A DNA stretch of 64,000 bases from an uncultured virus (IMG/VR IMGVR_UViG_3300009370_000013) (lineage: Duplodnaviria; Heunggongvirae; Uroviricota; Caudoviricetes): IMG/VR virus record IMGVR_UViG_3300009370_000013. One strand, 5' to 3'. A program made the translations under genes and the position numbers. Positions 3,396-44,910 of this stretch are shown here, piece by piece (positions within the stretch are counted from its first letter, which is position 1; the number at the start of each line of letters is the position of its first letter). Under the pieces are notes generated by a model. The model had not been told where the DNA came from. It saw only the letters and a list, made by a program, of their open reading frames with translations, and did no database searches.

Positions 3396-4430
3396 ATGAA
3401 AAAAATATTAATGAGTTTATTAGTTGCTCTATTTTTAGTAGGTTGTAATACAACAAAGAGTATTAAAATAGAACAAGAAGTCGGTCTCTTAAAAACCGTA
3501 CAAGAAAGAGGTTATGTTATTTGTGGAGTTAATGCAGGTCTACCAGGATTTTCTGCTCAAGATGACGCAGGAAACTGGAGTGGTTTAGATGTAGATTTCT
3601 GTAAGGCAGTTGCCGCTGGTATATTTGGTGACGCAAGTAAAGTAGAATTTGTAGGATTAAATGCTAGTCAAAGATTTCCAACATTGGCGTCTGGCAATAT
3701 TGATGTACTTGCAAGAAATACAACGTGGACAATTAGTCGTGATGTTAACTTGATGTTTGAATTTGCAGGTGTTAACTATTATGATGGACAAGGATTCTTG
3801 ATACCTACTGATTTAGATATTAAAACCGCTACAGAATTAGATGGTGCGTATGTATGTATTACAAAAGAAACTACAAGTGAATTAAATTTAAATGATTACT
3901 TTGCAGAACAAAATATGGCATATGTGCCAGTATATGTTGAAGGTAATAAAGACGCAAAGGCAAAACTATTTAATGGTGATTGTGATGTATTCACAACAGA
4001 CGCTTCTGGTTTAGCAAGTGCTAGAGCAGGTGCAGAAGACCCTAGTAAATGGTTAGTATTACCTGAAATTATATCTAAAGAACCATTAGGTCCACTTGTA
4101 AGACAAGGCGACCAAGAGTGGGAAGATGTAATAAGATGGACACATTTCATTATGATAAATGCTGAAGAGGCAGGTATTACAATGTACAATGTAGATTTAA
4201 TGTTAACTTCAAAGAATAAAGAAGTTAAAAGAATATTAGGTGTTGAAGGTTATATCGGTCCTATGTTAGGACTTGGTATGAAATTTGGTTATAATATTAT
4301 CAAACAAGTAGGAAACTATGGGGAATCATTTGAGAGAAATGTAGGACCTAATACTCCACTTGCATTAGAACGAGGATTAAATAATCTTTGGAAAAACGGT
4401 GGCGTAATGTACGTACCACCAATAAGATAG
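3396..4430 (+). CDS. aapJ: general L-amino-acid ABC transporter substrate-binding lipoprotein (AapJ/BztA/YhdW family)
   Basis: RG.VICGVNAGLPGFS, GLDVDFCKAVAA, RNTTWT.SRD, YYDGQGF, PEIISKEPLGP.VRQGD, VGNYGE.FERN, RGLNNLW..GG.MY.PP.R; lipobox LVGC. Confidence 0.9.
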   Translation: MKKILMSLLVALFLVGCNTTKSIKIEQEVGLLKTVQERGYVICGVNAGLPGFSAQDDAGNWSGLDVDFCKAVAAGIFGDASKVEFVGLNASQRFPTLASGNIDVLARNTTWTISRDVNLMFEFAGVNYYDGQGFLIPTDLDIKTATELDGAYVCITKETTSELNLNDYFAEQNMAYVPVYVEGNKDAKAKLFNGDCDVFTTDASGLASARAGAEDPSKWLVLPEIISKEPLGPLVRQGDQEWEDVIRWTHFIMINAEEAGITMYNVDLMLTSKNKEVKRILGVEGYIGPMLGLGMKFGYNIIKQVGNYGESFERNVGPNTPLALERGLNNLWKNGGVMYVPPIR

Positions 4431-7073: not shown

Positions 7074-7382
7074 ATGATAACAATACTAGAAAACGCAAAA
7101 AATAGATTAACAGAATTAACCAATACAAATAGAAAAGTATTTGTTAGACTATCTGTAAAGGGTGGTGGTTGTGCTGGGTTTGGGTATGATTGGTCGTTTG
7201 AAAATGAATCTAAACCAGATGATATTCTTGTTGATGGTATATTATTAGTAGATAAAGTATATGAAATGTATCTATTAGGTATGCAATTAGATTATAAAAA
7301 CGATTTATTTGGTTCTAATTTTGTATTCAATAACCCTAAAGCCAAATCCTCTTGTGGTTGTGGCACATCATTTAGTATTTAA
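7074..7382 (+). CDS. iscA: A-type Fe-S cluster carrier (IscA/SufA/HesB family)
   Basis: RLSVKGGGCAGFGY and FNNPKAKSSCGCGTSF; three conserved Cys. Confidence 0.92.
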   Translation: MITILENAKNRLTELTNTNRKVFVRLSVKGGGCAGFGYDWSFENESKPDDILVDGILLVDKVYEMYLLGMQLDYKNDLFGSNFVFNNPKAKSSCGCGTSFSI

Positions 7383-11664: not shown

Positions 11665-12762
11665 ATGGCCACGACAAATATTTTAGGATTTCAGAACTTC
11701 ATTTACTTTCACGGTGTCGTTGAAGATAGAAACGACCCAATGCAGGTTGGCCGAGTGCGAGTGCGTTGTCTTGGCATACATACAGATGATAAAGAAGTTT
11801 TGTCTACAGAAGATTTACCTTGGGCGCAAGTCATACTGCCTGTTACATCACCAGGCATAAGCGGTCTTGGACACTCGCCGACCTTTTTGGTTGAAGGCAG
11901 TTGGGTCTTTGGATATTTTAGAGATGGCGCAAGTTGTCAAGAGCCGTGTGTAATTGGTTCAATGCCAGGCAATCCCATTGCGAAAGGCGACTCTACAAAA
12001 GGTTTTGCCGACCCGAATGACATTTATCCTAAACATATAGGTGAGAGTGATGTCAATAGACTGGCGGTGAACAGTACTAGTACTCCTCACGAAAGTTTAA
12101 CATTGCGTAAAGAATTGCGGACTAAAGGCGTACCGACGGCAGACTTTAACGCAACGAAGGCAAGCAATTATTCCGATATGCCTGCAAGTGATGGTGACAC
12201 CTGGGATGAAAATGAAATTACCTATAACGCTGTTTATCCTCATAACAAAGTTTATGAAAGTGAACAAGGGCATATTTTTGAAATAGACGATTCAGTTGGC
12301 ACCGAAAGAATTTATCAGGCGCATAGAAAAGGCACCTCTTATGAAATTGATCCTGAAGGCAACATTACTTACCTTAACAAAAAAGATATTTACAGTATTA
12401 CAACAGGTGACAGTCGTTACAGTATCGGCGGGAAAAGTGACATTACTATAGATGGTCGCCACAAGATTTTTATTAACAAAAGCCAACAAGCCAATAACAA
12501 TTACGATATACAAATAGGTCCCAATGCCAATGTGAATATACAAGTGGACAAAGGCAATATCAATTTGGTCACCGTAGAAGGCAACATCAATGTCAATAGT
12601 GGAGGTGATTATAATTTGAAAGTAAAAGGCAACTACTCTTCTGTCATAGAAGGCTATAAATCAGAAATCATTGAAGGCACGAAGACATCAAGTACCACAG
12701 GCGCTGTCGTACACAAAGGGTCTACAATTGACTTAAACCCAGGCAGTATGCCAGGTCAATAA
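11665..12762 (+). CDS. gp5: baseplate central spike (gp5-like: OB-fold plus beta-helix, no lysozyme domain)
   Basis: GVVEDRNDP..GRVRVRCLG.H, LPWA, GSWVFGYFRDG..Q.P, YP.NKV.ESE.GH.FE.DD. Confidence 0.9.
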   Translation: MATTNILGFQNFIYFHGVVEDRNDPMQVGRVRVRCLGIHTDDKEVLSTEDLPWAQVILPVTSPGISGLGHSPTFLVEGSWVFGYFRDGASCQEPCVIGSMPGNPIAKGDSTKGFADPNDIYPKHIGESDVNRLAVNSTSTPHESLTLRKELRTKGVPTADFNATKASNYSDMPASDGDTWDENEITYNAVYPHNKVYESEQGHIFEIDDSVGTERIYQAHRKGTSYEIDPEGNITYLNKKDIYSITTGDSRYSIGGKSDITIDGRHKIFINKSQQANNNYDIQIGPNANVNIQVDKGNINLVTVEGNINVNSGGDYNLKVKGNYSSVIEGYKSEIIEGTKTSSTTGAVVHKGSTIDLNPGSMPGQ

Positions 12763-13810: not shown

Positions 13811-13818
13811 TATAAATA
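13811..13818 (+). promoter_or_regulatory. T4-type late promoter TATAAATA
   Basis: Exact motif followed by AGGAG RBS; heads the 13838-18228 gene run. Confidence 0.7.
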
Positions 13819-13837: not shown

Positions 13838-14275
13838 ATGAATAAAAGTAATGTTAATATTATGGAGACCTTTGCACAAAAAATAGCGCAAGAACAAGAC
13901 GCAGGTATCTATCCTGCTACGTATGACTTTAACGCAAGTCCTAAAGATTCCAAATTTTTAGATGATATCGCAAACAACACACCCAACTCGGGTATGTTTG
14001 ATTCAGTCAAGAAAAAATCAAAAAAGAAAAAACATCAAGTCATTAACTTAAATAACTATGAACGTTATTGGGATAACTCAACACCCACAGGACACCAAAT
14101 AAGAATAATATGTCAAGATGATTCTACTTTAACACTCAATCTGAATTGGCCGAAAGGATATAACCCACGAATACACGATATAGACGAAAGGACAATATAT
14201 GGCGGAATTAAAAGCAAATCACAAAGACTTAAAAAGAAAAGTAAATCTACAGGAGGCAGTAAGAAAGAACGATAG
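13838..14275 (+). CDS. hypothetical protein
   Basis: RBS and late promoter; 3' end overlaps the next ORF. Confidence 0.55.
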   Translation: MNKSNVNIMETFAQKIAQEQDAGIYPATYDFNASPKDSKFLDDIANNTPNSGMFDSVKKKSKKKKHQVINLNNYERYWDNSTPTGHQIRIICQDDSTLTLNLNWPKGYNPRIHDIDERTIYGGIKSKSQRLKKKSKSTGGSKKER

Positions 14276-14381
14276 GTCATTTACTTCTTGGCGAGAATTG
14301 AAAGACTTAAAGAAAATGAAACTCGCATTGAAAGACAAACTACAGTATGAAAAACGCAACACAACAATTTCTAAAGTATAG
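14199..14381 (+). CDS. small coiled-coil protein (DUF465/YdcH-like)
   Basis: LKANHKDL...LKDLKKMKLALKDKL pattern; AAGGA RBS. Confidence 0.5.
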   Translation: MAELKANHKDLKRKVNLQEAVRKNDRSFTSWRELKDLKKMKLALKDKLQYEKRNTTISKV

Positions 14382-14829
14382 ACCAAACGCACAATACATA
14401 GAAAAGGTTGAACATAGACCGAATAGTAATTATCAAAGACGTGAGTGTATTACTATGTCCGTTGTAGAAGCAAAAAACTTTGGTACGAAGTTTATTACAG
14501 GTTGGTTGGTTGATAATTATAATGAAAGTATCAATGCAACACCAATCATCCATCATTGTTGGAACATAGATAAAGGAGTGCATTATGATACGATACCAAA
14601 AAAAGAAACTAAATATGATTACGTTATGGATCCAGATGTTAACAAACCTTATAGTTATCAAGGCATATATTATATCTCACCAGTAATATATTTAACAGAT
14701 ACAGAACTAAAGATAATAGTACGTGATGGACGAAAAGCAACGATTACAGAAGAAGAACATAAAAGGTTTTATAATGAAAGACAACAAGAAGCAGTTTTAC
14801 AAAAAATGGATAAAATAAGGAAAGAATAA
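14347..14829 (+). CDS. hypothetical protein
   Basis: 160 aa ORF with C...GW...HHCWN...YD.T motif (possibly transglutaminase-like Cys/His/Asp). Confidence 0.55.
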   Translation: MKNATQQFLKYRPNAQYIEKVEHRPNSNYQRRECITMSVVEAKNFGTKFITGWLVDNYNESINATPIIHHCWNIDKGVHYDTIPKKETKYDYVMDPDVNKPYSYQGIYYISPVIYLTDTELKIIVRDGRKATITEEEHKRFYNERQQEAVLQKMDKIRKE

Positions 14830-14831
14830 CT

Positions 14832-15017
14832 ATGTATGATGAAATGAATGGACTACAAGTACTATGGTACTTATTAACAAATTGGGAAGAAGGAAAGGGT
14901 CTTTGGTTGATAATTGGATTTGCAATGATTGTCTTATGTTTTTCAATATGGGCAGATAAACATTTTGATAATGACGGATACAAACCTAAACCAAATGAAT
15001 ATGATTATTGGATATGA
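14832..15017 (+). CDS. small membrane protein
   Basis: One hydrophobic helix; tight packing with neighbours. Confidence 0.5.
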   Translation: MYDEMNGLQVLWYLLTNWEEGKGLWLIIGFAMIVLCFSIWADKHFDNDGYKPKPNEYDYWI

Positions 15018-15790
15018 CAGATAATAACGATAAATTTAATCCACATTTTTTAAATCACCGTAAACATAAAGAGTTTATGCAACCTGTTGAAGACGAACAA
15101 AGGGGTGGTAATTTAAATTTTGGTCCTTATGTGGCAATGTATTATGTTCATCAAGAGTTATTAGAAGGACTTACTGAAAGAGGACAAAAACTAATACCAG
15201 GTTCAGTCAATGAAAACTTAGCAGGGATAATAGAAGACCAACGAGGTTTTGGTTTAGAAGATAAAAAATGGTTTATAAAAGAGTTTCAACGATACATTAA
15301 TGATTACGTTAAAGCGTCAGCGAACTATATTGGACAACCTTTTACAGAAGACCGATTTTCAACAAAATTTACACTTATGAACTTATGGATTAATTATATG
15401 AAAGAGAACGAAGCTAATCCTGAACATACACACGATGGAATGTTATCTTGGGTTATCTTTTTAAATACGCCAGACTTAACAGAAGAAAGAAAAAATTATA
15501 AAGGCAAGAGTTTTGGTCCAGGTGGTGTTACGTTTCATTATGGTGAACAAGCTAATCCAACTTGGGCAGAACACTCATATGGTTATAATCCTCAAATGGG
15601 TGGTATGTGGATATTTCCAGCACAATTAAGACATCAAGTAATTCCTTTTAAAACAAAAGGAACAAGAATAAGTGTATCAGGCAATTTATACTTTAATCAT
15701 CCTAAAGCTGAATCAAAGACACTTGAAGAAGTAAAATTAAAAAAAGAAGAAAGTAGCTTTGCTTCAAGAATAGCCGCTGAAATAAAGTAA
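15008..15790 (+). CDS. putative 2OG-Fe(II) oxygenase (TIGR02466-like)
   Basis: W.N......NPEHTH, LSWVIFL, IFPA.LRH.V.PF, RISVSGN. Confidence 0.8.
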   Translation: MDMTDNNDKFNPHFLNHRKHKEFMQPVEDEQRGGNLNFGPYVAMYYVHQELLEGLTERGQKLIPGSVNENLAGIIEDQRGFGLEDKKWFIKEFQRYINDYVKASANYIGQPFTEDRFSTKFTLMNLWINYMKENEANPEHTHDGMLSWVIFLNTPDLTEERKNYKGKSFGPGGVTFHYGEQANPTWAEHSYGYNPQMGGMWIFPAQLRHQVIPFKTKGTRISVSGNLYFNHPKAESKTLEEVKLKKEESSFASRIAAEIK

Positions 15791-16569
15791 TGAAACAAGA
15801 AGCGTTGCAATGGTTTATGGAGTTGCAAAAGTTAATTTGTCAGACTATTGAAGAGTTAGAAACTAAAGCAAAATTTAAAGATAACAAATGGAAATTTGGT
15901 AACTTTAAAACAATTAAAGGTGATGTGATTGAAAAGGGAGGTGTCACCTTTAGTAATGTTGTAGGTAAGTTTCCAAAAGACTTTGCAAAAGAAATCCCTG
16001 GTACAAAACATAGTAGAAACTTCTGGTCAACAGGAGTATCAGTAGTATTACATCCAAAGAATCCTAAAGTACCTGCAATACATTTTAATACAAGATATAT
16101 TGAAACAGAAAAAAGTTGGTTTGGTGGTGGTACAGATATGACACCGTGTTTGAAAGATGATGTAGAAAGAAATTTATGGCATTACAGATTAAAACAATTA
16201 TGTGATAGACATAATAAACTTTATTACAAAACATATAAGAAATGGTGTGATGAGTATTTTTATTTACCCCATAGAGAAGAAACAAGAGGTGTAGGTGGTA
16301 TCTTCTTTGATTACAAATATGGTAAGAAACATTTTGAATTTGTTAAAGATGTTGGTAGAACCTTTTGTCAATTACTTAAAGAGATTATAACACCAAAGAT
16401 GAATTTAAAATATACGAAGCAAGATAAATACACACAACTATTAAAACGTGGACGATACGTTGAATTTAATTTAATGTATGATAGAGGAACAAAGTTTGGA
16501 TTGAGAAGTGGAGGAAATCCTGAAGCAATATTAATGTCTATGCCACCAGGTGCGATATGGGAAGAATAA
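15790..16569 (+). CDS. hemF: oxygen-dependent coproporphyrinogen III oxidase
   Basis: EKGGV.FS.V.G, TGVS.VLHPKNP.VP..HFN.RY, WFGGG.D.TP, KKWCDEYFYLPHR.E.RGVGGIFFD, RGRYVEFNL.YDRGTKFGL. Confidence 0.95.
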   Translation: MKQEALQWFMELQKLICQTIEELETKAKFKDNKWKFGNFKTIKGDVIEKGGVTFSNVVGKFPKDFAKEIPGTKHSRNFWSTGVSVVLHPKNPKVPAIHFNTRYIETEKSWFGGGTDMTPCLKDDVERNLWHYRLKQLCDRHNKLYYKTYKKWCDEYFYLPHREETRGVGGIFFDYKYGKKHFEFVKDVGRTFCQLLKEIITPKMNLKYTKQDKYTQLLKRGRYVEFNLMYDRGTKFGLRSGGNPEAILMSMPPGAIWEE

Positions 16570-16573
16570 TATA

Positions 16574-17368
16574 ATGAGATTAATACAACCGATATTCGCC
16601 AGTAATACTACAAGAGAAACTGGACTAGGAGAAGATAATAAAATCTTTAATGCAAAAGAAGTTAAAGAACGTGTTAAGAAAGATATTGATTTAGGAGTAA
16701 AAGAATTTCTTTTATTTTACATACCTGAATTAAAGTTATTTAACTTTGAGGAAGTTTGTTTAACTGCCGCTAGTCTTTCAACGTTACCTATAAAATTAAA
16801 TGTTGATGTATGTTTATGTTCTTACACGCAAGACGGACATTGTTGTGTAACAGGAGACCAAGAAAAAACAGATGACCTATTACTACAATCAGCCGTAGAG
16901 ATTTACACAGCGTCAGGTGCTACAGTAGCGCCAAGTGATTGTCAAGACAATACAGTTAAGAATATTAAATCAATTAATAATGGTCAGATACCTGTAATGA
17001 GTTATAGTACAAAATTTCGTTCAACATTTTATAGAGGTTGGCGTGATGTAATGAAGATACCAAAAGGTATTCATAGACCCTATCAATTAGATGTTAGCGA
17101 TAGACATAAGGCAATTGCAAGGTCTATAAAATATTCAGATGATGGCGCAGATGAATTAATGGTAAAACCTGGTATGACAAGTTTAGACTTAATTGAACCA
17201 ATAAGAAATATTACAAAGAAACCTGTAGGTGTATATCAAACATCTGGAGAATGGTTAGGTATTGGTGCGCCTGGTAGTTTAGAAGAAACATATCACATAT
17301 TCAAAAGAGCAGGTGCTTGTTATATGATAACTTATGGTGCAAGACGATTATGCCGACATCACTTATAA
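16574..17368 (+). CDS. hemB: porphobilinogen synthase (ALA dehydratase), shortened
   Basis: DVCLCSYT.DGHC Zn motif, APSD, MSYSTKF, YQLD, GAD.LMVKPG, YQ.SGE, KRAGA..ITY; alternative GTG start at 16550. Confidence 0.88.
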   Translation: MRLIQPIFASNTTRETGLGEDNKIFNAKEVKERVKKDIDLGVKEFLLFYIPELKLFNFEEVCLTAASLSTLPIKLNVDVCLCSYTQDGHCCVTGDQEKTDDLLLQSAVEIYTASGATVAPSDCQDNTVKNIKSINNGQIPVMSYSTKFRSTFYRGWRDVMKIPKGIHRPYQLDVSDRHKAIARSIKYSDDGADELMVKPGMTSLDLIEPIRNITKKPVGVYQTSGEWLGIGAPGSLEETYHIFKRAGACYMITYGARRLCRHHL

Positions 17369-18228
17369 TAGGATCAAGAGGAAGTAAATTAGCACGTATC
17401 TATGCTGAAAAAGCTAAAGCAGTATTAAACAAAGAAGTAATTATCAAAGAAATTGAAACCAAGGGCGACCAACTTAAAGATGTAAGACTTTCTGAAGCTG
17501 GAGGTAAAGGACTATTTTCTAAAAAGATTGAAGAAGAATTATTAAGTAAAAAAATAGATATAGCCGTCCACGCATTAAAAGATATGCCAACGGAAGAAAC
17601 AGAAGGTTTATTAACAAACTGTTTTTTAGAAAGAAACGATCCAAGAGAAATTTTAATTAGTAGAGATAATAAACACTTAAAAGATTTAGCTCCAAATTCA
17701 ATTATAGGTACTTCTTCATTTAGAAGAGAATTCCAATTAAAAAGAATAAGAGAAGACCTTAATTATAAGTTAATAAGAGGAAACGTTGATACACGAATTA
17801 AAAAACTAAATGATGGTTTATTTGACGCTATAATTTTGTCTTATGCAGGAATTCAATCATTAGGTTTAGAGAACAAGATTTCTCAAACGTTTTCTACTAG
17901 TGAAATGATACCTTGTGCTGGTCAAGGAGTTATTGCTTTACAATGTAGAGATAATGATGAAGAGATAATTGAGTTATTAGAAAGTGTTAATCATACAGAA
18001 ACACACAATTGTGTTAAGGCAGAAAGGAACGTGCTTAAGATTATAGAAGGAGATTGTGATACAGCGGTAGGTGTATTTGCAAATATTGATGGTAATACGA
18101 TAAATCTTGAAGCAGAACTATTTTCACCAGATGGTAAAGATAGATTCTATTCAAAATCATCTAAAACTATTGATAAAGCAGATGAGCTAGGATTAGAGAT
18201 AGGCTATTTATTAAAATCTAGTAATTAG
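17350..18228 (+). CDS. hemC: hydroxymethylbilane synthase (porphobilinogen deaminase)
   Basis: IGSRGSKLA, TKGD, GGKGLF.K.IE, DIAVHALKDMP, GTSS.RR, IRGNVDTR..KL, P.AGQG, AER...EGDC. Confidence 0.95.
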   Translation: MPTSLIIGSRGSKLARIYAEKAKAVLNKEVIIKEIETKGDQLKDVRLSEAGGKGLFSKKIEEELLSKKIDIAVHALKDMPTEETEGLLTNCFLERNDPREILISRDNKHLKDLAPNSIIGTSSFRREFQLKRIREDLNYKLIRGNVDTRIKKLNDGLFDAIILSYAGIQSLGLENKISQTFSTSEMIPCAGQGVIALQCRDNDEEIIELLESVNHTETHNCVKAERNVLKIIEGDCDTAVGVFANIDGNTINLEAELFSPDGKDRFYSKSSKTIDKADELGLEIGYLLKSSN

Positions 18229-18431
18229 TCTTGTTCAGAATACAACGTTTGCGAGTATAATGCTAAAATAAACATAGCAATTCCTAACAATGACAAAGTA
18301 CCACATAAAAACCAATTATCGTTCATAGGAATTCCGTTATAACCGCCGTCAATTGCGCCGACAGCGCCGATTAGACAGAAAGTTCCTCCTATTGATAAAA
18401 TAATTGTTAAATATTCAAGTATTTTTTTCAT
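18225..18431 (-). CDS. small two-TM membrane protein
   Basis: AAGGAG RBS, own sigma70 promoter, two hydrophobic helices. Confidence 0.65.
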   Translation of the reverse strand: MKKILEYLTIILSIGGTFCLIGAVGAIDGGYNGIPMNDNWFLCGTLSLLGIAMFILALYSQTLYSEQD

Positions 18432-18644: not shown

Positions 18645-18652
18645 TATAAATA
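18645..18652 (+). promoter_or_regulatory. T4-type late promoter TATAAATA
   Basis: Exact motif 7 nt before ATG 18660. Confidence 0.65.
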
Positions 18653-19476: not shown

Positions 19477-19779
19477 ATGCCAAAAATTTGTAGGGATACA
19501 ATAGATTTAGGTACAACAGGACATCCTTGTACAGCAGTTATAGGAGTTAAAGCAACACAATTTACAGTTAAAGCAAATGGTATACCAATTGTTAGACTTA
19601 ATGATCCTGCTTTACCACATACGTGGCTTGTAGGTATTTATTGTGTCCCACACGGTGGAGCTAAAGTTAATATGGCGTCAACAACAGTTCGTGCTGAAGG
19701 TAAGGGTGTAGCAAGAATTGGAGATTCTTTTGATTTTGGAGCAATGTATCAAGGTTCATCTAACGTAAGAGCGGGATAA
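19477..19779 (+). CDS. PAAR spike-tip protein (gp5.4-like)
   Basis: TTGHPC, VKANGIPIVRLND, PH, S.TVRAEGKGVARIGD, GSSNV.AG. Confidence 0.85.
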   Translation: MPKICRDTIDLGTTGHPCTAVIGVKATQFTVKANGIPIVRLNDPALPHTWLVGIYCVPHGGAKVNMASTTVRAEGKGVARIGDSFDFGAMYQGSSNVRAG

Positions 19780-19783
19780 ACTG

Positions 19784-19791
19784 TATAAATA
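19784..19791 (+). promoter_or_regulatory. T4-type late promoter TATAAATA embedded in an inverted repeat
   Basis: actgtata-aa-tatatacagt; ATG 8 nt downstream of the motif. Confidence 0.65.
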
Positions 19792-19799
19792 TATACAGT

Positions 19800-20282
19800 A
19801 TGGGACAACAAAATCAGAAATTTAAATCAGATTATACTAGTGAGGTAAAAAGCTCTAGTACGAGGCAATCTAGGAAGTTTAAAGATATAGATTTAAATTT
19901 TACTAGGCATCCAATTACCAACGATATTGGTACACTTGAGGATGCTAATGCTATAAAGAGGTCTGTAAGAAATTTGATATTAACAAATTACTATGAGAGA
20001 CCTTTTCATCCAGAATTGGGGTGTGGTGTAAGACAACTTCTTTTTGAAAATTATACACCAATGACTTCTATATTTTTAAAAAGAAAAATAGAAGAAGTTT
20101 TACAAAATCACGAACCAAGAATAAGTATAACATCTATCGTTATTAATGATAATAATTTTGTAACTAACAGTCCATTTGGTGATGATGTTGATAGTAATAG
20201 ATTAGTAGTTGAAATACATTTTTATATTATTGGAGTGCCAGGTCCACAATCAATGTCGGTAGAATTACAAAGGTTAAGATAA
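19800..20282 (+). CDS. gp25: baseplate wedge subunit gp25
   Basis: FKDIDLNF..HP, AIKRSVRNLILT...ERPF.P.LG.GV..LLFE, EPRI. Confidence 0.92.
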   Translation: MGQQNQKFKSDYTSEVKSSSTRQSRKFKDIDLNFTRHPITNDIGTLEDANAIKRSVRNLILTNYYERPFHPELGCGVRQLLFENYTPMTSIFLKRKIEEVLQNHEPRISITSIVINDNNFVTNSPFGDDVDSNRLVVEIHFYIIGVPGPQSMSVELQRLR

Positions 20283-38002: not shown

Positions 38003-38535
38003 TGATAACAAAAGAAAATTTTATTACAGCAAACTTTATAGATAATGAAAGAAAAAATATTGAGATTTTATTAAGAGATGAAAAAAATGAAAAAGTTATT
38101 TCTCATATAGTTGAATACAGTACAGATGATCCAACTTGTCAAGAATTATTAAAGGTTTGTCCTTTAGACCAACTTCACGAAAATACTTGGCAAAAGAAAA
38201 AGGAAGAAACAAAAGCTTTTGAGGAACAAATTATAAAAATAGCAGAAAAGAAGGGTCTCTTTAAAAAGGTATTACAAATTACTAATAAATCTCAATCAGA
38301 AGTTTTTTTTAATGCATTGTTTGATTTTCTTTTAAGTTCTAAAAAGGAACATATAGACCGTTTATTTAATTTTAAATTATTTTTATTTGAATTAGAAGAA
38401 GTTAAACATTCTAAAAATGAAAAAGCAAAGAGTAATATTAGAAGAGCAAAAACACCTATAGCTGCTTTTAGAGAATATCTTAAAATTAGAGATGAATTGG
38501 TAAGACCATTTGCTGGTGATGATTTATATAATTAA
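38002..38535 (+). CDS. hypothetical protein
   Basis: 177 aa, TAATG-coupled to the epimerase. Confidence 0.65.
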   Translation: MITKENFITANFIDNERKNIEILLRDEKNEKVISHIVEYSTDDPTCQELLKVCPLDQLHENTWQKKKEETKAFEEQIIKIAEKKGLFKKVLQITNKSQSEVFFNALFDFLLSSKKEHIDRLFNFKLFLFELEEVKHSKNEKAKSNIRRAKTPIAAFREYLKIRDELVRPFAGDDLYN

Positions 38536-39098
38536 ATAAAGTAATTAGTCCACCAACCAGTCCAACCTTGTTCCATTAAATATTGACTTTGATTAAATAA
38601 CATAATACTATAATTATCATCTTTAGGTTTGTATTCATTACCTTTTACAGAATAACAAACTTTATCATAAGTGTTAACAACCAATTTTTCTTTTTCTAAC
38701 ATTTCATCAATACCTTTGTTATATTTTTCTTGCCACATTTTAGGGTCTTTTTTAAATGTATTATAGATGTAAGATTGGTCGCCAGTCCAAGATATAATAG
38801 ATGAATTAAATGTTGTATGGTCTCTATCTCTCCACCAAGCGTGTAAAACTGTTGGGTCTTTTCTAATTAAATTAGGTACTTTACCATAGATACAAATATC
38901 TAAATCAAAATATAAGTTTTCTCCATCTCTATAGATGTCAAACATTTGGAGTTTATTAAAAACACCTTTGTAATTTTCAGAAGATATAACAACAAATTCA
39001 TCATACTTTAAACCAGAGTAAGTATCAATCATATGTTTTAAATTCTTAACATACCAAGTACCAAACTTATCTCCTGTATTTACACAAATTATTCTCAT
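38532..39098 (-). CDS. GT-A fold glycosyltransferase-like protein
   Basis: IICV..G.KF...YV..L..M, NKL.MF, LYFDLD (DxD), FNSSI.SW. Confidence 0.75.
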   Translation of the reverse strand: MRIICVNTGDKFGTWYVKNLKHMIDTYSGLKYDEFVVISSENYKGVFNKLQMFDIYRDGENLYFDLDICIYGKVPNLIRKDPTVLHAWWRDRDHTTFNSSIISWTGDQSYIYNTFKKDPKMWQEKYNKGIDEMLEKEKLVVNTYDKVCYSVKGNEYKPKDDNYSIMLFNQSQYLMEQGWTGWWTNYFI

Positions 39099-40186
39099 TT
39101 CCAATAGTCCTTTATCCAATCATCTTTACAATGATGTATAGTTGTTAGAGGGTTAGCAAAATGTACAATCTTTATTTTTGGATTTGGTTTATCTAATATC
39201 ATATAATCTCCAAAACCATCTTCTATATATCTTCTATGGTTTATATCATTTTGTTTTTTATCTGAACCATATACTCCTACCCATTCTGGATTCATTAATG
39301 TTATGGTTATATTATTTTTATTGGCTCTATCTTTGATAAAATTTTGTTCACCAAAATATTTGTAATGTACTATATTATTATTATAATAAAATAGTTGCCA
39401 ATACTCTACAGCTTTTATAAAACTATCCCATATAACGGTACCTGTTCCTGATTTAAATTTTATAAAACCTCCTTGAATTTTTGGTGTTTGTCTTTTACCC
39501 CACCATTTATTGTAAGTTATTATTTCATTGTCTGCTACAGGCCATCCAATCATATCATCTACATTGCCTGTAATAATTTGGTCTATATCCATAATAATAA
39601 TTTCATCACCTGGTTTTTGATATGCAAATAGAGGTGAGAAGAAAGTTAGTTTGTGCCAATGATATTTTATATCACTATGAGGTTTTAAAGGTATTACTAC
39701 ATCTGCTTTGACATTTGGATTATCACTATAACATATAAACTCAAATGGTAGTGTACAGTATGTTTTTAATCCATTATAAAGTTTTGCAACATAATCAGGT
39801 GAATATTTTCCTTTAAAATAAACACAACATATTTTTATTTTTTGGTCTTTAACATTTGATTTATAATCTTGATGTTCATAATAATTTCTGTTATATTTTT
39901 CTCTTGCTTTGTTTATTGCTTGATGTAAAGGTACACTACAATATTTTTGACAAGTTAATGATGGATTAGTTTTTAATTCTTCAAAATATTCTTTCCATTC
40001 TTTACTATTAATAATATCTTCTACCTTTTCATTGTTTTTAAGTAATAAATGTTTTTGCATTAATCTTTTTATTTGAGGTTCTTGCCACCCTATAGGATTA
40101 TCTAACCAGCAACACGGCAGTAAATAACCAGTTGCTGTATAAGAAAGTTCTTTTTTATGCAGACATTTTGGATAAATTTTTACCAT
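39095..40186 (-). CDS. fusion of an N-terminal SPASM/Twitch-type Fe-S domain and a GT-A glycosyltransferase-like domain
   Basis: N-term C...GYLLPCCW...CQKYC; C-term ICCVYFKGKYSPDYV.KL, HWHKL.FF, MDID, GEQNF, IVHF. Confidence 0.75.
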   Translation of the reverse strand: MVKIYPKCLHKKELSYTATGYLLPCCWLDNPIGWQEPQIKRLMQKHLLLKNNEKVEDIINSKEWKEYFEELKTNPSLTCQKYCSVPLHQAINKAREKYNRNYYEHQDYKSNVKDQKIKICCVYFKGKYSPDYVAKLYNGLKTYCTLPFEFICYSDNPNVKADVVIPLKPHSDIKYHWHKLTFFSPLFAYQKPGDEIIIMDIDQIITGNVDDMIGWPVADNEIITYNKWWGKRQTPKIQGGFIKFKSGTGTVIWDSFIKAVEYWQLFYYNNNIVHYKYFGEQNFIKDRANKNNITITLMNPEWVGVYGSDKKQNDINHRRYIEDGFGDYMILDKPNPKIKIVHFANPLTTIHHCKDDWIKDYWK

Positions 40187-40848
40187 TCTATTTCTTTCAA
40201 TCCTTTACTAAATTTTTTTGGGAAAAACTTGTTCAATGAATTTTGTTTACTATTTAAATATAGATTTGGATGTTTAGGTTTATACTTATCTCTTGTACTC
40301 CAACGACCTGAATAAATTACATCAAATAGAATACCATTATCTCTTGCCATTTTGCTACAAGTTTCTATATCATTTTCATTGTAATTAAAAACAATATATT
40401 GCCAACGAGAAGTAAGACCCATTTTAGCACATAATTTCATCATTTCAAAAAGATGTTTGCCATCTTGGTGTATTCTATACTTATGGCTATCTTCAGGTAA
40501 ACCATCTATACCAAATAACCATTCTGCTTTAGGGTGTGCTTCAAATGCTTTTTTATACCACTTCATAGGTCTTTGTGAAGCAGCGGTATTAATTATTGTC
40601 GGTATATTATTGTCTGAACAATACTTTAATATTTCTATAAATTTTGGATGAAATATAGGGTCAGAAATTTGACCACAAAAAATTAATCCTTTAAAGTAAT
40701 TTGCCATTTTTTTAAGGTCATCTAATGGCATATCTTGACCTGGTATTTTAAATCCTATATCTCTAATAGCTTGTCGCAAACATTTTGGACATTCTAAAGG
40801 ACATCTAAAGGTTAAATCAATGTTAATATTTCTATCTTTAAAATTCAT
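40180..40848 (-). CDS. radical SAM protein (core only)
   Basis: CPLECPKC, FCGQISDP, FGIDG, WQYIVF.YNE; no C-terminal SPASM. Confidence 0.88.
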   Translation of the reverse strand: MNFKDRNINIDLTFRCPLECPKCLRQAIRDIGFKIPGQDMPLDDLKKMANYFKGLIFCGQISDPIFHPKFIEILKYCSDNNIPTIINTAASQRPMKWYKKAFEAHPKAEWLFGIDGLPEDSHKYRIHQDGKHLFEMMKLCAKMGLTSRWQYIVFNYNENDIETCSKMARDNGILFDVIYSGRWSTRDKYKPKHPNLYLNSKQNSLNKFFPKKFSKGLKEIEW

Positions 40849-42016
40849 TCCAAAGTTCACGCCAGTTAAAGTTTCTATGTTTAGATAAGTCATCACAATA
40901 TTTTTTCATTTCTTTATGGTTAGGATCAAAAGGTTTTAATAATAATTCTGATTTTATATAACTATAGTCAGGTAGTTTTTCATATTTTTTTAATAATATA
41001 TCTTTATCTTTTTGTTTTAGATTTCTTATTGATAACATAAAAGGTCCTCTAACTATATTTTGAAATGTCATAGGTATGCCAAAGTTGTCCCTATAGTAAT
41101 TTCTAATTTCAATTAAATCAAAAATGTTTAATATTGAAGAGGTCAAATTTATTTCTTTTATTAAATCTTTTGCCTCTTTTAAATTAGATTCAAATTTTAC
41201 TCTATCAATAGGATATCTCATCCAATCTAATTTTCTTCCATAGTGGTCACACGATACTCCAAATTCTATTTTTTCAAATTTATCAACATAATCAAATATA
41301 TTCCACTTTTTCCATCTTAATTCTGTTAAGTTGGTATTAAAATATAAAGTGATATGTTTTGCGTGTTCTTTTGGTATTTCATCTAAAAGTTCCCATTGTT
41401 TTGGTAATTGTAAAGGTTCCCCGCCAGTCATATTCATATAACCTAATAAATCAGCATTATCTAAAATATCTTTTTTAATATCATTCCATTCTTTATGATT
41501 TACACTTTTAAATGATTCATTTGCCCAACCCATAGTGGCACCAGCGATACCTGATAAAGCATTTGGACCATAAATTTCTTTCACTTCATTTCTTCTAGTA
41601 GATGAATTAAAAGGATGACACATATAACAACTCAAATTACAATAGGTGCTATGTACTCTTAATTTTATTCCTACTCTATTAGGTTCTAAAAGTATTCCTA
41701 AATTTTTACTAAATGTTTCTGACCCTACTCCATTTCTATATGATTCGCCACTTGTTTCTTCTAATTTATAACATACTCTACAAGCATCCACTTGTTTACC
41801 TGCTAACATTTTATTTCTTAACTCTTCCATTTCAGGAGATTTAAAAAATTTAAATGGTGTAGTGTTATTAACATTATATTTGTTTATAGGTATATATTGT
41901 TTTGCGTGGCAGCAAAGTCTATAACGACCAGCACTATCCGAATAAATTTCTTTAAAGGGCATAGTGCAATATGCCTTATTATCTTCATAGAATTTTTTTA
42001 TTTCAGATTCAAACAT
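40838..42016 (-). CDS. radical SAM protein with N-terminal Twitch-like domain
   Basis: CTMPF...RLCC...CRVC then CNLSCYMC, TGGEP, NTN. Confidence 0.88.
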   Translation of the reverse strand: MFESEIKKFYEDNKAYCTMPFKEIYSDSAGRYRLCCHAKQYIPINKYNVNNTTPFKFFKSPEMEELRNKMLAGKQVDACRVCYKLEETSGESYRNGVGSETFSKNLGILLEPNRVGIKLRVHSTYCNLSCYMCHPFNSSTRRNEVKEIYGPNALSGIAGATMGWANESFKSVNHKEWNDIKKDILDNADLLGYMNMTGGEPLQLPKQWELLDEIPKEHAKHITLYFNTNLTELRWKKWNIFDYVDKFEKIEFGVSCDHYGRKLDWMRYPIDRVKFESNLKEAKDLIKEINLTSSILNIFDLIEIRNYYRDNFGIPMTFQNIVRGPFMLSIRNLKQKDKDILLKKYEKLPDYSYIKSELLLKPFDPNHKEMKKYCDDLSKHRNFNWRELWNEF

Positions 42017-43158
42017 TATAATTTATAGTTCTGACAATATTTGGAACATTGAGATACTGGATTAGGTGTGTTCCAACTATCTGGTAATGTTTTTTGAAAC
42101 CATTGGTGAGAAATTATATCCATTAAATTAGCAGAAAATACATTAAGTTCTTTTTGGTGTTTTTGATATTCTTGCATAATTGGATGTTCTATAAATCGTT
42201 TTCTCATTTTTGGGTCGTTTTTATGATAGTAATGAGGATTACAGAAATAACAACAAGGTAAAACTTGACCATCTGGATTAATTACAACTTTGTTTCTAAC
42301 TCCCCATTCACAGTTAATCGGGCAAGTTTTTGCTTTTTGTTCTAATTTTTTCATTAATTTATGTTCACCTACACCTACTTTAATCTTTTGTGTTGTAAAT
42401 CTTCTTCTATCTATTCTGGTATAGTTTGGTCTATTATCAAGTTCACTTCTTGCTTGTGTATTGGAAAGTTCTTGGTGTGTTTGTCTAAAAACTTTTTGCC
42501 AATCTGGTGAGGTTGCTTCTAAAATTCCTGGTTTACCTTTAATAGAAAATTTTAAATTATCTCCTTCGTGCCATCTATCAGTTGCAACAAAATGGTGTCT
42601 TATTGAACCGTGATCCATACACATTTTTTCAATTTCAGGTAAATGTTTTTCATTATGTTTCCACACTAAAGTTTGTGTTCTTATTACTGCTTTCGTAAGT
42701 GCAAGTGTATCCATATTGTCAAATATTTTTTTCAAGAAAGTAAATTGTCTATAATTTTGGTGCATTTCTTGGTTTGTACCTTCAACACAAAAAACAACTT
42801 GTAGGTTTTTACCACCTGCTACACCTAAATCCCACCAAAACTCCTCATTTCTCAATGAACCATTTGTATTAATGCAAATAGAAACTTCGGGATGGGCATT
42901 TTCTTTAATATATTTTACCATAGGTAATATATCTGGATTGGTTAAACAATCACCCCAGGTTCCACAGAAATCATAATTATAAATGTGTTTACATAATTTT
43001 TCAGGAAGAGCTTGTTTAAATTCTTCTAAAGTCCAACTAATATCTGGTAACCAACTAGCTTTTTTTAAACCCATTGGATCGGTTCTATGACATTGAGGAC
43101 AACCAGCATTGCAACGAGTAGTTACATCTAGCATTATGTCAATAGGAAATTTCCACAT
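42016..43158 (-). CDS. radical SAM/SPASM-domain protein
   Basis: CNAGCPQC, CGTWGD, NTNGS; C-terminal C...INPDGQVLPCC...CSKYC. Confidence 0.88.
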   Translation of the reverse strand: MWKFPIDIMLDVTTRCNAGCPQCHRTDPMGLKKASWLPDISWTLEEFKQALPEKLCKHIYNYDFCGTWGDCLTNPDILPMVKYIKENAHPEVSICINTNGSLRNEEFWWDLGVAGGKNLQVVFCVEGTNQEMHQNYRQFTFLKKIFDNMDTLALTKAVIRTQTLVWKHNEKHLPEIEKMCMDHGSIRHHFVATDRWHEGDNLKFSIKGKPGILEATSPDWQKVFRQTHQELSNTQARSELDNRPNYTRIDRRRFTTQKIKVGVGEHKLMKKLEQKAKTCPINCEWGVRNKVVINPDGQVLPCCYFCNPHYYHKNDPKMRKRFIEHPIMQEYQKHQKELNVFSANLMDIISHQWFQKTLPDSWNTPNPVSQCSKYCQNYKL

Positions 43159-44036
43159 TATATTACCTCCCATAGTTCGTCAAATCTTTTGTTTATTAAA
43201 TGTACTAGTTTTGCTTTTGATATTATTTCTTTTGATATTTCATCATTAGCAAATTTACCTCCAGCTTCCATAATATAAGTATGCCATTCGTAAGGTAAAT
43301 TATACCATTGTAGTTTATATTTATCTACTAGATATTGAAAAAAGACTTCATTATTTGCAAAGAATAGTTTTGATATATTCTCTCCAAATAGTTTTTCTTC
43401 TTTTGCTTGGTTTAATATTGCTATCATATCATCTAAACGCTCTGTAAATTTTAGTTCTTTTATGATGGTTGAATTGCCTCCTAATATTGCTGTATTAGGA
43501 ATTAAATAATCTGCTTTATAATTATTGTCTATTGCTAGCATTGCTTTTTTACACATTGCTTTAACATACATATTATATCTGTCTTTATGGGACATTATAG
43601 TTTCAAAATCAACATCATTTTTTTTAAATTTTTTAATATCACTTTGAGACCAAGTATTTTCTTGGGTTGAATTAATTGCGTGAACACATATCTTATTCAA
43701 ATCAAATTTTTCAAAAAAGGATTCAGTTGTGTTAGGTACTACATCAAAATCAAAGTAAAGAACATTATCATATTCCTTACCTAACTCTTCCCATAAATGT
43801 ATCTTGTATAGATTGATGGTATCAAATTGATAAACATTATATTTCTTTTTAAATTTTTGCCAGTAGGTATCATTTTCATAAAGTCTATATTCAGCATTGC
43901 AATGCTTAGCATATTCTTTCTTAACATCTAATAGTTTTTGAAAATGTTTTTTTAATTGGACTTTGGTAACCTGGTGTCTATCCATTAAATTCGTATCATC
44001 ATTTTCTATATAGATACTATAAATTATGTTTTTCAT
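43158..44036 (-). CDS. glycosyltransferase-like protein
   Basis: NLYKIHL, VLYFDFDVVP (DxD), NNE.FF, EWH, LVH.INK.F; paralogue of next gene. Confidence 0.65.
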   Translation of the reverse strand: MKNIIYSIYIENDDTNLMDRHQVTKVQLKKHFQKLLDVKKEYAKHCNAEYRLYENDTYWQKFKKKYNVYQFDTINLYKIHLWEELGKEYDNVLYFDFDVVPNTTESFFEKFDLNKICVHAINSTQENTWSQSDIKKFKKNDVDFETIMSHKDRYNMYVKAMCKKAMLAIDNNYKADYLIPNTAILGGNSTIIKELKFTERLDDMIAILNQAKEEKLFGENISKLFFANNEVFFQYLVDKYKLQWYNLPYEWHTYIMEAGGKFANDEISKEIISKAKLVHLINKRFDELWEVI

Positions 44037-44910
44037 CAAACCTCCATACAACATCAAATTCTTTACAGACAGCGTGTACTATTTTTGTTCCTTTTTCTAT
44101 AAAGTGTTGTCTATCAAAAAAGTAATGCCATTTGTTATCAAACCATTGTACATTAACATTATTTGTTTTTAGTTTATAAGAAAAGATTGTTTCATTATCA
44201 TAGCGAAACATTTTGGTAATATTACTAGGGTACATACCATCTTTTTCATCTTTTAATTTAGTCATTAAATCTATTGTATCTTTAAACTCAGCAAAATAAT
44301 TTAGTTTAAGTATATCTTCTTTTCTAGCTCCAATGATACCAGTATTGATTACATCATTATCTGGTTGATGTCCTTTTTCAAGAAGCATAGCTTGGCAATT
44401 ATAATATTTTGCTGATGGACTTCTGGTACTTTCTACAAGGTCATCAATAGGAACACGGTTAACATTAACCATATGATTATTATGATAGACACAAATACCT
44501 TTTGATAAATCCCAAGCGTCAAAAAAGGAATCTTTGGTCACAGGTATAGCATCAAAATCTAAATACAAAATTTCATCATATTCTTTTGCTAATTGACAAA
44601 GTAAATGTATCTTGTAGAAATTGACTACTTCATATCCTGTTATTTCTGGAAAGTCTTTAAGTAAATTCTTTTCAAAGGTTTGATATTGTTTATCATACTC
44701 ATACATTAAGAAAGGTACACCTATAGCTTTACTATAGCGTTGTTTAGATTCAAGTAGTTTGTTGTAATGCTTTTTAAAAGCGTTTCTTACTTTATTAGCT
44801 TTTGCAAGTTTATTATAACTACCAATTCTAGCTGGCTCTAGTTTACCAAAATGTTCTTTCGCTGGTACATCAACATAGATACTATAAATTACTCTTTTCA
44901 TCATCCTCAT
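44017..44910 (-). CDS. glycosyltransferase-like protein
   Basis: NFYKIHL, ILYLDFDAIP (DxD), INTGII, DNETIF, KWH, IVH..K.F. Confidence 0.7.
   Translation of the reverse strand: MRMMKRVIYSIYVDVPAKEHFGKLEPARIGSYNKLAKANKVRNAFKKHYNKLLESKQRYSKAIGVPFLMYEYDKQYQTFEKNLLKDFPEITGYEVVNFYKIHLLCQLAKEYDEILYLDFDAIPVTKDSFFDAWDLSKGICVYHNNHMVNVNRVPIDDLVESTRSPSAKYYNCQAMLLEKGHQPDNDVINTGIIGARKEDILKLNYFAEFKDTIDLMTKLKDEKDGMYPSNITKMFRYDNETIFSYKLKTNNVNVQWFDNKWHYFFDRQHFIEKGTKIVHAVCKEFDVVWRFDEKHNL

Follow-up and report, generated by a model that had tools for sequence, protein, structure and literature searches.

The window, which in this work means the whole 64,000-nucleotide stretch analysed (uncultured virus, IMG/VR record IMGVR_UViG_3300009370_000013), carries hemF, hemB and hemC in tandem between structural genes, gp5 on the left (11665..12762, + strand) and PAAR and gp25 (19477..20282, + strand) with gp6 on the right. 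According to ORF calls and profile searches the four ORFs of the block are uninterrupted. These are, all on the + strand, a 2OG-Fe(II) oxygenase (15014..15790), hemF for an oxygen-dependent coproporphyrinogen III oxidase (15790..16569), hemB for a short, 264-aa Zn-type porphobilinogen synthase (PBGS) missing the N-terminal arm (16574..17368, ATG start), and hemC for hydroxymethylbilane synthase (17350..18228, ATG start). The oxygenase gene and hemF meet in a TAATG overlap (15788-15792), hemF and hemB are separated by 4 nt, and hemB overlaps hemC by 19 nt. For the oxygenase the ATG at 15014 is a likelier start than the TTG at 15008, because its ATGA overlaps the upstream stop. A conserved hydrophobic 68-aa ORF on the - strand (18225..18431), 88-100% identical in relatives, runs towards hemC and marks the end of the slot. 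On the other side a T4-type late promoter motif, TATAAATA (13811..13818, + strand), is followed by AGGAG and the first of four abutting or overlapping ORFs of 145, 60, 160 and 61 aa (13838..15017, + strand), which belong to no assigned family, are conserved in relatives and probably share one late transcript. The block has a GC content of 30-33%, gp6/gp7 one of 30-32%. An earlier note on this DNA had described abutting or overlapping heme genes, TAATG-coupled to an oxygenase, behind a late promoter at 13811 and inside the baseplate module; re-reading of the junctions and flanks bore this out, and added the four ORFs between promoter and oxygenase.

HemF, HemC and the upstream oxygenase

HemF and HemC scored above their equivalog cut-offs (331 vs. 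297 bits for NF003727 and 318 vs. 164 bits for TIGR00212, respectively). HemF has the active-site motifs HPxNP, HxNxR, GGGxD, RGxGG, RGRYxEFNL and DRGT, and is ~68% identical to Pelagibacteraceae HemF. The HALKD, SSFRR, IRGNVDTR and GDCD motifs of HemC align with those of 4MLQ; we take them to represent the catalytic Asp, the substrate-binding Arg cluster and the cofactor-binding Cys. HemC is 77% identical to the Ca. Pelagibacter enzyme, and SAR11 looks to be the source of both viral proteins.

The upstream oxygenase has an H140-x-D142 motif and a distal RHQV at 206, and matches PF13759 and phrog_81; its TIGR02466 score (43 bits) is below the cut-off of 62.5. The dN/dS values in diverged pairs were 0.37-0.47. 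The functional coupling to the hem genes suggested by the earlier note did not hold up, and we rejected this protein as a heme enzyme: it belongs to a generic phage family, has a paralogue (55% amino acid identity) in the replication region of the complete genome described below, where five other 2OG-FeII_Oxy Pfam matches were found among 150 ORFs, and it is missing from four of 19 hem slots and often separated from the hem genes.

A short HemB without the N-terminal arm

HemB scored above the cut-off of the Pfam ALAD profile (154 vs. 24.6) and below that of the equivalog NF006762 (144 vs. 297 bits), the latter because it is short and divergent. Its AF2 model (pLDDT 92) has the TIM-barrel fold, and the Foldseek matches listed were all PBGS (query TM 0.80-0.91). 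The window protein keeps the zinc-site cysteines C80/C82/C90, the Schiff-base lysines K147 and K198, and also R157 and Q171. In an alignment of 64 short-clade HemBs K198, C80, C90, R157 and Q171 are conserved throughout, C82 and K147 in 63, and the SGE and ITY motifs are near-invariant. Of the 64, 48 have just two residues ahead of the reference column and none has more than 13; an RLR-type arm motif is found in none, as opposed to 42 of 45 full-length relatives. Basic residues of the lid bind the second ALA. The lid position Q171-4 is His in the window and Lys or Arg in a single one of 22 short-clade rows; the Arg at Q-3 is invariant.

The Zn enzymes of E. coli (1I8J) and human (1E51, 5HMS), representing the morpheein type (PMC7729013), have in common with the viral HemB the TIM barrel, the two lysines, C-x-C-x7-C, SGE and ITY. 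The viral protein differs from them in the absence of the arm, in an Arg that replaces the allosteric-Mg Glu, in a helix after SGE that is shortened by ~10 residues, and in the displaced lid Arg. In PBGS the arm contributes to a network, found only in the octamer, by which the active-site lid is closed (PMC7729013). With the arm and the allosteric-Mg Glu lost, the viral HemB is, judging from its sequence, probably freed from the octamer/hexamer control of ordinary PBGS and would have lost its allostery. The Rhodobacter capsulatus enzyme (PMC535902), which is highly active as an oligomer smaller than the octamer, provides a precedent, although it is metal-independent and hexameric, whereas the viral HemB combines a Zn site with the absence of the arm.

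The usual SAR11 hemB is ruled out as the origin of the viral gene: the proteins are only 25-30% identical, and the typical host HemB is Mg-type. The viral HemB appears to derive from a different, Zn-type lineage. The comparison with SAR11 proposed earlier thus points to SAR11 for HemF and HemC (from identities), and not to the usual SAR11 gene for HemB (from HemB trees). In eight SAR11-family genomes the sole hemB detected encodes a sister short HemB of 300-302 aa, in which the RLR arm motif is absent. Its grouping with the viral proteins had a UFBoot value of 100 in trees built on smaller sequence sets, to which long branches and AT bias may contribute. In the one such genome read fully, the short hemB lies within an ALAS/hemC/hemB/hemE/hemH/hemF/hemJ block, whose 492-aa HemC showed no HemD domain by Pfam. 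Since the cellular short proteins have retained the canonical lid Arg, they give only partial support to the viral one.

The arm-less Zn-type HemB had been overlooked in the earlier note. As far as we could find, such a viral protein is new to the literature, although viral hemB may be listed in supplements (PMC11480375, bioRxiv) or in the KO tables of PMC11360552. Whether the lid can close, and the enzyme be fully active, only in the octamer, as has been held, could be tested directly on a naturally arm-less PBGS.

Viral context and variability of the slot

G001, a complete genome of 177,460 bp with terminal repeats, matches the window at 99.7-100%, and in 24 of 33 related viral hemB loci (74-100% amino acid identity) hemB is joined to gp5 and/or PAAR/gp25/gp6. 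Among 19 slots hemB is constant, and hemC, hemF, hemE, YbaN and a second oxygenase come and go: hemB directly precedes hemC in nine, and in ten hemC is replaced after hemB by a different, PF05118-type oxygenase. In relatives hemF and hemB are separated by a 277-aa ORF, which found no family in Pfam or PHROG, had unnamed look-alikes in the Atlas and gave an uninformative single-sequence fold (pLDDT 30). Another phage lineage has 12 cassettes with the order hemF-hemC-hemE-hemB. In the host hemC is in a tsaD-hemC-hemD arrangement and hemB is elsewhere, so the viral gene order, which had been called unusual for bacteria, is not that of the host. What had been called a tetrapyrrole operon is a tandem of three viral hem genes, not a fixed operon, since gene content varies across the slots.

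The earlier note had named host DNA fused to the phage contig by misassembly as the outcome that would overturn its reading. The isolate-phage collection seems to favour this, as it yielded only nine hemB, two hemF and ten hemC records with 28-43% identity; most are short contigs without annotation or belong to assemblies of several contigs, and we read these as host DNA (two were examined). Nevertheless, misassembly is hardly credible and we regard host contamination as refuted, because synteny holds across independent assemblies: the same slot recurs in many divergent viral contigs, the host differs in gene order and HemB type, and G001 is complete. The hem cassette is viral and occupies a genuine auxiliary-metabolic-gene slot.

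T4 core genes, S21, peptide deformylase, CsgF/G, L7/L12 and SAR11-like auxiliary metabolic genes, which are pelagimyophage markers according to PMC7029224, are present in the window or in G001. On these grounds the virus would be a T4-like SAR11 myophage similar to pelagimyophage group A (PMP-A), with its host assigned from gene similarity. According to the same paper (Zaragoza-Solas et al. 2020), coproporphyrinogen oxidase, porphobilinogen deaminase and GMP reductase occur in a PMP-A 'deep ecotype' genome, and L7/L12, S21, IscA, TctA, peptide deformylase and heme oxygenase are listed among the pelagimyophage genes. All of these recur in the window or in G001; neither the formate dehydrogenase nor the ferrochelatase of PMP-A was detected in G001. 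Thus the guess that single hem genes may already be known from marine phages was correct for hemF and hemC. In the passages of its text, Table S5 and the ten supplements covered, we found no mention of hemB, hemE, the gene order or a variable slot.

Other heme genes of the phage and the host

A search of G001, in line with the earlier suggestion to look through the rest of the genome, added an ALAS gene (492 bits vs. a cut-off of 339), hemO and a bilin reductase gene; hemO and ALAS are 0.9 kb and 5.4 kb past the window's end. The reported absence of hemA, hemD, hemE and hemH was confirmed for the window (65 ORFs scanned), but for hemA it does not extend to the genome, where ALAS is present. 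A six-frame search of G001 yielded no HEM4, URO-D, ferrochelatase or HemJ match, corresponding to hemD, hemE, hemH and hemJ, and all four were present in three of three typical SAR11 genomes tested. No hemD was detected within 6 kb of 80 viral hemB loci by BLASTP with a SAR11 HemD query, which divergent forms could escape.

The genes valaS, hemO and pcyX were described in pelagiphage-like contigs by Wegner et al. (2024, PMC11480375), and G001 fits their 'broken cassette', with hemO and bilin reductase together, valaS nearby, and neck and terminase genes beside them. The main text of that paper mentions hemB, hemC and hemF nowhere; the present cassette is mid-pathway. With it, viral tetrapyrrole genes reach beyond the entry (valaS) and exit (hemO/pcyX) into mid-pathway steps, in viruses of the most abundant cells of the ocean, and this indicates that viral cassettes of this type arose on more than one occasion.

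Expression and selection

The motif TATAAATA occurs 12 times on the + strand of the window, including 13811. It precedes the homologous first ORF in nine of 12 distinct relatives; in the remaining three this ORF is shorter and the motif is somewhere in the locus. Sigma-70 promoter-like sites were not above chance (22 vs. 28.6 expected). There were five terminator-like sites vs. 1.9 expected, and the sole one on the + strand lies within hemC and its T tail is poor. In contigs from RNA libraries pieces of hemF were found in four of four studies, of hemB in at least three and of hemC in at least two. This is a weak signal without a silent control stretch, and the contigs may not represent transcripts; the runs, of which only contigs were used, contained no more than 15% of the sampled words.

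The cassette genes are under purifying selection. Relative to the window, dN/dS was 0.18-0.44 for hemB (14 pairs below 93% identity; 0.44-0.80 in very close pairs with few changes), 0.13-0.24 for hemC (seven close pairs) and 0.06-0.27 for hemF, with 0.21-0.36 for the gp25 control.

Possible roles of the cassette

We consider it likely that ALAS, HemB, HemC and HemF of the phage, expressed late, boost heme flux in the host. Late in infection the phage enzymes, with ALAS encoded elsewhere in the genome, would drive ALA to porphobilinogen and hydroxymethylbilane, the host HemD and HemE would follow, phage HemF would convert coproporphyrinogen III to protoporphyrinogen IX, and the host HemJ and HemH would complete heme. 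The heme would serve respiration, and part of it might enter the HemO/bilin reductase branch of the phage. We infer late co-transcription, the activity of each enzyme and the gain in flux. Against this reading stand the equivalog score of HemB, its missing arm, the displaced basic residue of the lid, and the lack of hemD near the viral hemB loci. It is quite unlikely that the viral HemB is a Zn- and substrate-binding variant without PBGS activity, which sequesters ALA, disturbs the host octamer or makes another condensation product. The loss of the arm and of the post-SGE residues, the displaced lid residue and the distance from the host HemB would suit such a role, but the Schiff-base lysines, Zn triad, SGE and ITY are all near-invariant, hemB stands immediately before hemC in nine slots and accompanies hemC in the 12 cassettes of the other lineage, and hetero-oligomers of viral and host HemB are improbable, because the sequences are too distant.

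The end product might also be a bilin instead of heme, with the cassette and ALAS supplying the heme oxygenase and bilin reductase of the phage. Heme made only to be opened gains no iron, so both halves suggest that the pigment (or CO) matters; ALAS, hemB, hemC, hemF, hemO and bilin reductase genes co-occur in G001, hemF-hemB-hemO are contiguous in another locus (L351), and Wegner et al. (PMC11480375) called it enigmatic what hemO and the bilin reductases are for. We think this is unlikely, as hemO was within 6 kb of only one of the 80 viral hemB loci, a scan of 150 G001 and 65 window ORFs revealed no bilin-binding protein, and HemO could use pre-existing host heme. Hydroxymethylbilane closes non-enzymically to uroporphyrinogen I, a dead end. 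The earlier note had proposed that selected steps boost the flux or divert it; boosting is the best reading, and diversion, in which HemB and HemC outpace the host HemD and porphyrins build up to harm the host or bind metal, is highly improbable. Established chemistry and the lack of hemD in G001 and near the viral hemB loci would fit diversion, but the hosts have hemD adjoining hemC, and HemF, which acts solely downstream of the III isomer, is retained under strong selection, which favours through-flux.

The PF05118-type oxygenase of the slots raises a separate question. Its host orthologue adjoins hemB, in the position of ALAS in other genomes, and among 121 SAR11 genomes the oxygenase was found in 91, ALAS in 26, and both in none. 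Outside SAR11 this exclusivity fails: ALAS is present in seven of eight oxygenase-bearing genomes, and the oxygenase is beside hemB in none of the eight. In phages, G001 and four ALAS-bearing fragments have no orthologue of the oxygenase, and four oxygenase-bearing fragments have no ALAS; eight of these nine sequences are only 37-83% complete, therefore their exclusivity shows little. A gene of the threonine aldolase family adjoins the oxygenase homologue in four of the eight non-SAR11 cases, as expected for an amino acid beta-hydroxylase, which is only a hint; this partner was found in none of the 121 SAR11 genomes (one query, no positive control). It is conceivable, though we are doubtful, that the slot is a swappable tetrapyrrole-supply module with an octamer-free, active arm-less PBGS, and that this oxygenase is the ALA source of most SAR11. 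Phages would then enter the pathway by valaS, as the window phage, or by the oxygenase. Speculatively, the oxygenase might use 2OG and Fe to oxidise a C6 amino diacid at C3, e.g. 2-aminoadipate to 2-amino-3-oxoadipate, the Shemin intermediate, which yields ALA by loss of CO2. We found no published account of an oxygenase that replaces hemC in such slots and is mutually exclusive with the host ALAS. If it makes ALA, the SAR11 oxygenase may represent a third entry to tetrapyrroles besides the Shemin and C5 routes, and would explain heme in most SAR11, which have neither.

The tetrapyrrole gene block and its viral origin

All four ORFs of the block are intact in the window, in the tandem arrangement described in the earlier note: the probable ATG starts of the oxygenase, hemF, hemB and hemC are at 15014, 15790, 16574 and 17350, respectively, the oxygenase and hemF overlap in TAATG, hemF and hemB are separated by 4 nt, and hemB and hemC overlap by 19 nt. 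HemF (331 bits vs. 297) and HemC (318 vs. 164) scored above the NCBIfam cut-off; HemB (144 vs. 297) and the oxygenase (TIGR02466, 43 vs. 62.5) scored below it and passed Pfam. The late promoter motif proposed at 13811, TATAAATA, is present (the + strand of the window has 12 such sites in all), with four unknown ORFs between it and the oxygenase, and the flanking genes, gp5 on one side and PAAR/gp25/gp6 on the other, agree with the proposed baseplate-module setting. The claimed coupling of this upstream oxygenase (15014..15790) to heme synthesis could not be sustained. The TAATG junction is by itself insufficient, and we rejected the oxygenase as a heme gene because it is a generic phage protein: it is a phrog_81 member, and G001, the near-identical virus genome, holds a 55% paralogue beside recombination genes and five other 2OG-FeII_Oxy matches.

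Over its full 64 kb the window is matched at 99.7-100% by G001 (complete, 177,460 bp, direct terminal repeats), which may come from the same source material and is not independent evidence. Host contamination joined by misassembly, which would have undone the earlier reading, is contradicted by divergent viral contigs with the same slot: 24 of the 33 viral loci found with HemB link hemB to gp5 and/or PAAR/gp25/gp6 (74-100% amino acid identity). The gene order differs, as claimed, from that of the host, because in a Ca. Pelagibacter chromosome hemC lies within tsaD-hemC-hemD and hemB about 690 kb away. Isolate-phage records gave only matches of 28-43% identity to the hem genes, which we read as host contigs, and none of hemF, hemB and hemC has a PHROGs family. 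The hemF-hemB-hemC cassette is viral.

When each relative was compared pairwise with the window, dN/dS was below 1 for all three genes: 0.18-0.44 for hemB in 14 pairs of <93% identity and 0.44-0.80 in four near-identical pairs, 0.13-0.24 for hemC (seven close pairs), and 0.06-0.27 for hemF (gp25 control, 0.21-0.36). Pieces of hem genes were present in RNA-library contigs of four studies; such contigs cannot demonstrate transcription, and the comparison had no silent control. The cassette is most likely a working flux-support set, which keeps the suggested boost of heme flux by selected steps and leaves the oxygenase out of it.

Other heme genes and other cassettes

Outside the window 157 ORFs were called in G001 and 150 scanned (seven short + strand ORFs were omitted, one long two-stretch ORF was judged by eye). 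The proposed search for hem genes in the rest of the genome revealed an ALAS (TIGR01821, 492 bits vs. cut-off 339; GTG start), a heme oxygenase and a ferredoxin-dependent bilin reductase, besides GMP reductase, S21, peptide deformylase and CsgF/G genes. Six-frame profile searches of G001 yielded no match to HemD, HemE, ferrochelatase or HemJ, all of which were present in three of three typical SAR11 genomes tested; the phage must therefore depend on the host for the remaining steps. Judged from its sequence, it is predicted to encode pathway steps 1, 2, 3 and 6 and the bilin branch. A CHASE2 plus adenylate/guanylate cyclase gene of G001 (L147:5877-7532) adjoins csgF/csgG on the opposite strand.

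The slot between gp5 and PAAR/gp25/gp6 is variable. Its content was counted over 19 distinct fully spanned slots, most of them located via hemB, hence the hemB count (19/19) is biased. The upstream oxygenase was present in 15 slots, a PF05118-type oxygenase in 10, hemC in 9, hemF in 8, a YbaN/DUF454 membrane protein in 6 (e.g. L049:7825-8235) and hemE in 2 (intact in L048:3719-4711, 307 bits vs. cut-off 303). A 277-aa ORF that belongs to no known family and separates hemF from hemB in close relatives (L004:5481-6314) occurred in 10; its Atlas look-alikes are mostly viral and without names. HemC and the PF05118-type oxygenase never shared one of the 19 slots, either one comes after hemB.

A short-HemB profile search gave 100 candidate stretches, 80 of which were examined. 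In these, short hemB also sits after gp43 and after gp23, hemF-hemC-hemE-hemB occurs in 12 loci, and BLASTP detected hemD, hemH, hemJ or ALAS within 6 kb of short hemB in none of the 80. Loci of other phage lineages (L352-L368, L043, L351, L371-L378) carry hemF-hemC-hemE-hemB, hemE-hemF-hemC, hemF-hemB-hemO or a lone short hemB, the last directly after gp23 or after gp43 and an exonuclease. The window HemC clusters with that of Ca. Pelagibacter (77% identity, SH 81), and the HemC of the hemF-hemC-hemE-hemB phages forms a branch apart from it, which suggests that phage hem cassettes were assembled at least twice.

A short HemB without the N-terminal arm

The window HemB is a 264-aa protein whose sequence begins with the first barrel strand. 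We compared 64 short-clade proteins, viral origin being established for part of them only, with 45 full-length relatives. Two residues precede the reference column in 48 of the 64 (maximum 13), and the RLR-type arm motif occurs in none of them vs. 42 of the 45 full-length proteins. Across the short clade there is hardly any variation in the Zn triad, the two lysines, R157, Q171, SGE or ITY, and the structural model shows a PBGS barrel at high confidence (pLDDT 92, query TM up to 0.91). The typical SAR11 HemB is of the Asp-rich Mg type with an allosteric Glu and is 25-30% identical to the viral enzyme (12/12), whereas the latter is of the Zn type and has Arg at the Glu position. In the phylogenetic comparison with SAR11 proposed earlier, HemC supports host affinity, and HemB argues against descent from the usual SAR11 hemB.

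The evidence on activity points in both directions. According to Jaffe's review (PMC7729013), secure PBGS lid closure requires octamer contacts involving the arm. Of 22 short-clade rows, only one has the basic lid residue (K/R) at Q171-4, and all 22 have an invariant Arg one position later than this canonical site, while cellular short HemBs keep the basic residue; we counted this displacement against activity of the viral enzyme. R. capsulatus PBGS, on the other hand, is described in PMC535902 as active without an octamer, a precedent relevant to the viral HemB. In 8 of 121 Pelagibacteraceae genomes the sole hemB match is a 300-302-aa form without arm motif, and in the one inspected whole it lies inside an ALAS/hemC/hemB/hemE/hemH/hemF/hemJ block, which we counted in favor of activity of arm-less HemB. 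The cellular short HemB and the viral clade are sister groups (UFBoot 100, 28 rows, with a long-branch warning). The arm-less Zn-type HemB deserves bench work.

The divergent heme block of these eight SAR11-family genomes (L221:3623-10597 in G034, and L222-L228) comprises ALAS, a 492-aa HemC whose long C-terminal extension is unassigned, short hemB, hemE, hemH, hemF and hemJ, and was probably acquired as a unit; the HemD profile had no match in G034, and katG and an FTR1-like gene were seen by eye upstream of the block.

ALA supply in SAR11

The slot oxygenase that replaces hemC is 48% identical to the Ca. Pelagibacter gene that diverges from hemB. Among the 121 Pelagibacteraceae genomes (completeness filter 85%; one, G051, unpublished) ALAS was above cut-off in 24, plus two fragments, and the oxygenase was found in 91; the two never occurred together (0/121), an exclusivity that may reflect few events as SAR11 genomes are related. 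Glutamyl-tRNA reductase, and HemL above cut-off, were found in 0/121, and the four genomes with neither ALAS nor oxygenase also lacked hemB. In each of the 30 best loci the oxygenase lies divergently to hemB, and ALAS occupies that position in all six loci checked (at least four genomes). The host relatives nearest to the phage HemC include G002, a complete chromosome with no ALAS match, therefore valaS may give the infected SAR11 cell a route absent in the host.

G001, which encodes ALAS, lacks an orthologue of the PF05118-type oxygenase (best 30%); in phages generally, the test of ALAS vs. oxygenase was made on fragments, which weakens it. Counting against a role of this oxygenase in ALA supply, many pelagiphages have it in the same slot with no adjoining hemB (hemB in 18/80 loci). 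Outside SAR11 the exclusivity also breaks down: seven of eight alphaproteobacteria with a homologue have ALAS, none has the homologue beside hemB, and in four a beta-eliminating-lyase (threonine aldolase family) gene adjoins it. Among solved structures, the nearest carry the label beta-hydroxylase (7V4F); chemistry via 2-amino-3-oxoadipate is speculation. The oxygenase, alternating with hemC and ALAS, deserves experimental study at the bench. One non-SAR11 alphaproteobacterium, G360 (L415), has the oxygenase and aldolase pair plus hemB, but neither an ALAS above cut-off nor a GluTR dimer domain.

Relation to published work and other features of the window

The earlier note asked that the three-gene set be checked. 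Two of the genes have been published for this phage group: Zaragoza-Solas et al. (PMC7029224) reported coproporphyrinogen oxidase and porphobilinogen deaminase from a deep-water PMP-A genome. A literature search covering few subscription journals found neither a phage hemB nor a PBGS without the arm, nor a third route to ALA. The main text of Wegner et al. (PMC11480375) describes valaS together with hemO and pcyA/X and does not mention hemB, hemC or hemF. The accessible parts of a 2026 review (PMC13564367) and of PMC3448164 hold nothing on Pelagibacter or a third pathway and nothing on ALA, respectively, that of PMC7527133 assigns Ca. Fonsibacter the glycine route, and the main text of PMC11360552 has nothing on heme.

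A full-length ribosomal protein L7/L12 gene (19009-19371, +) is preceded by a late promoter motif at 18645 and has 41 related viral loci; L7/L12 is already known for PMP-A (PMC7029224). The window also encodes an SBP_bac_3 solute-binding protein (3396-4430), IscA (7074-7382), which in other pelagiphages often follows the PF05118-type slot oxygenase, and an Asp/Asn-hydroxylase-like gene adjoining TctA (45517-47270). A low-GC minus-strand block (38532-44910) holds three radical-SAM genes and several ORFs without family, and within a 2429-aa fibre-like ORF a stretch of about 800 bp is duplicated at 80% identity (54292-57023).
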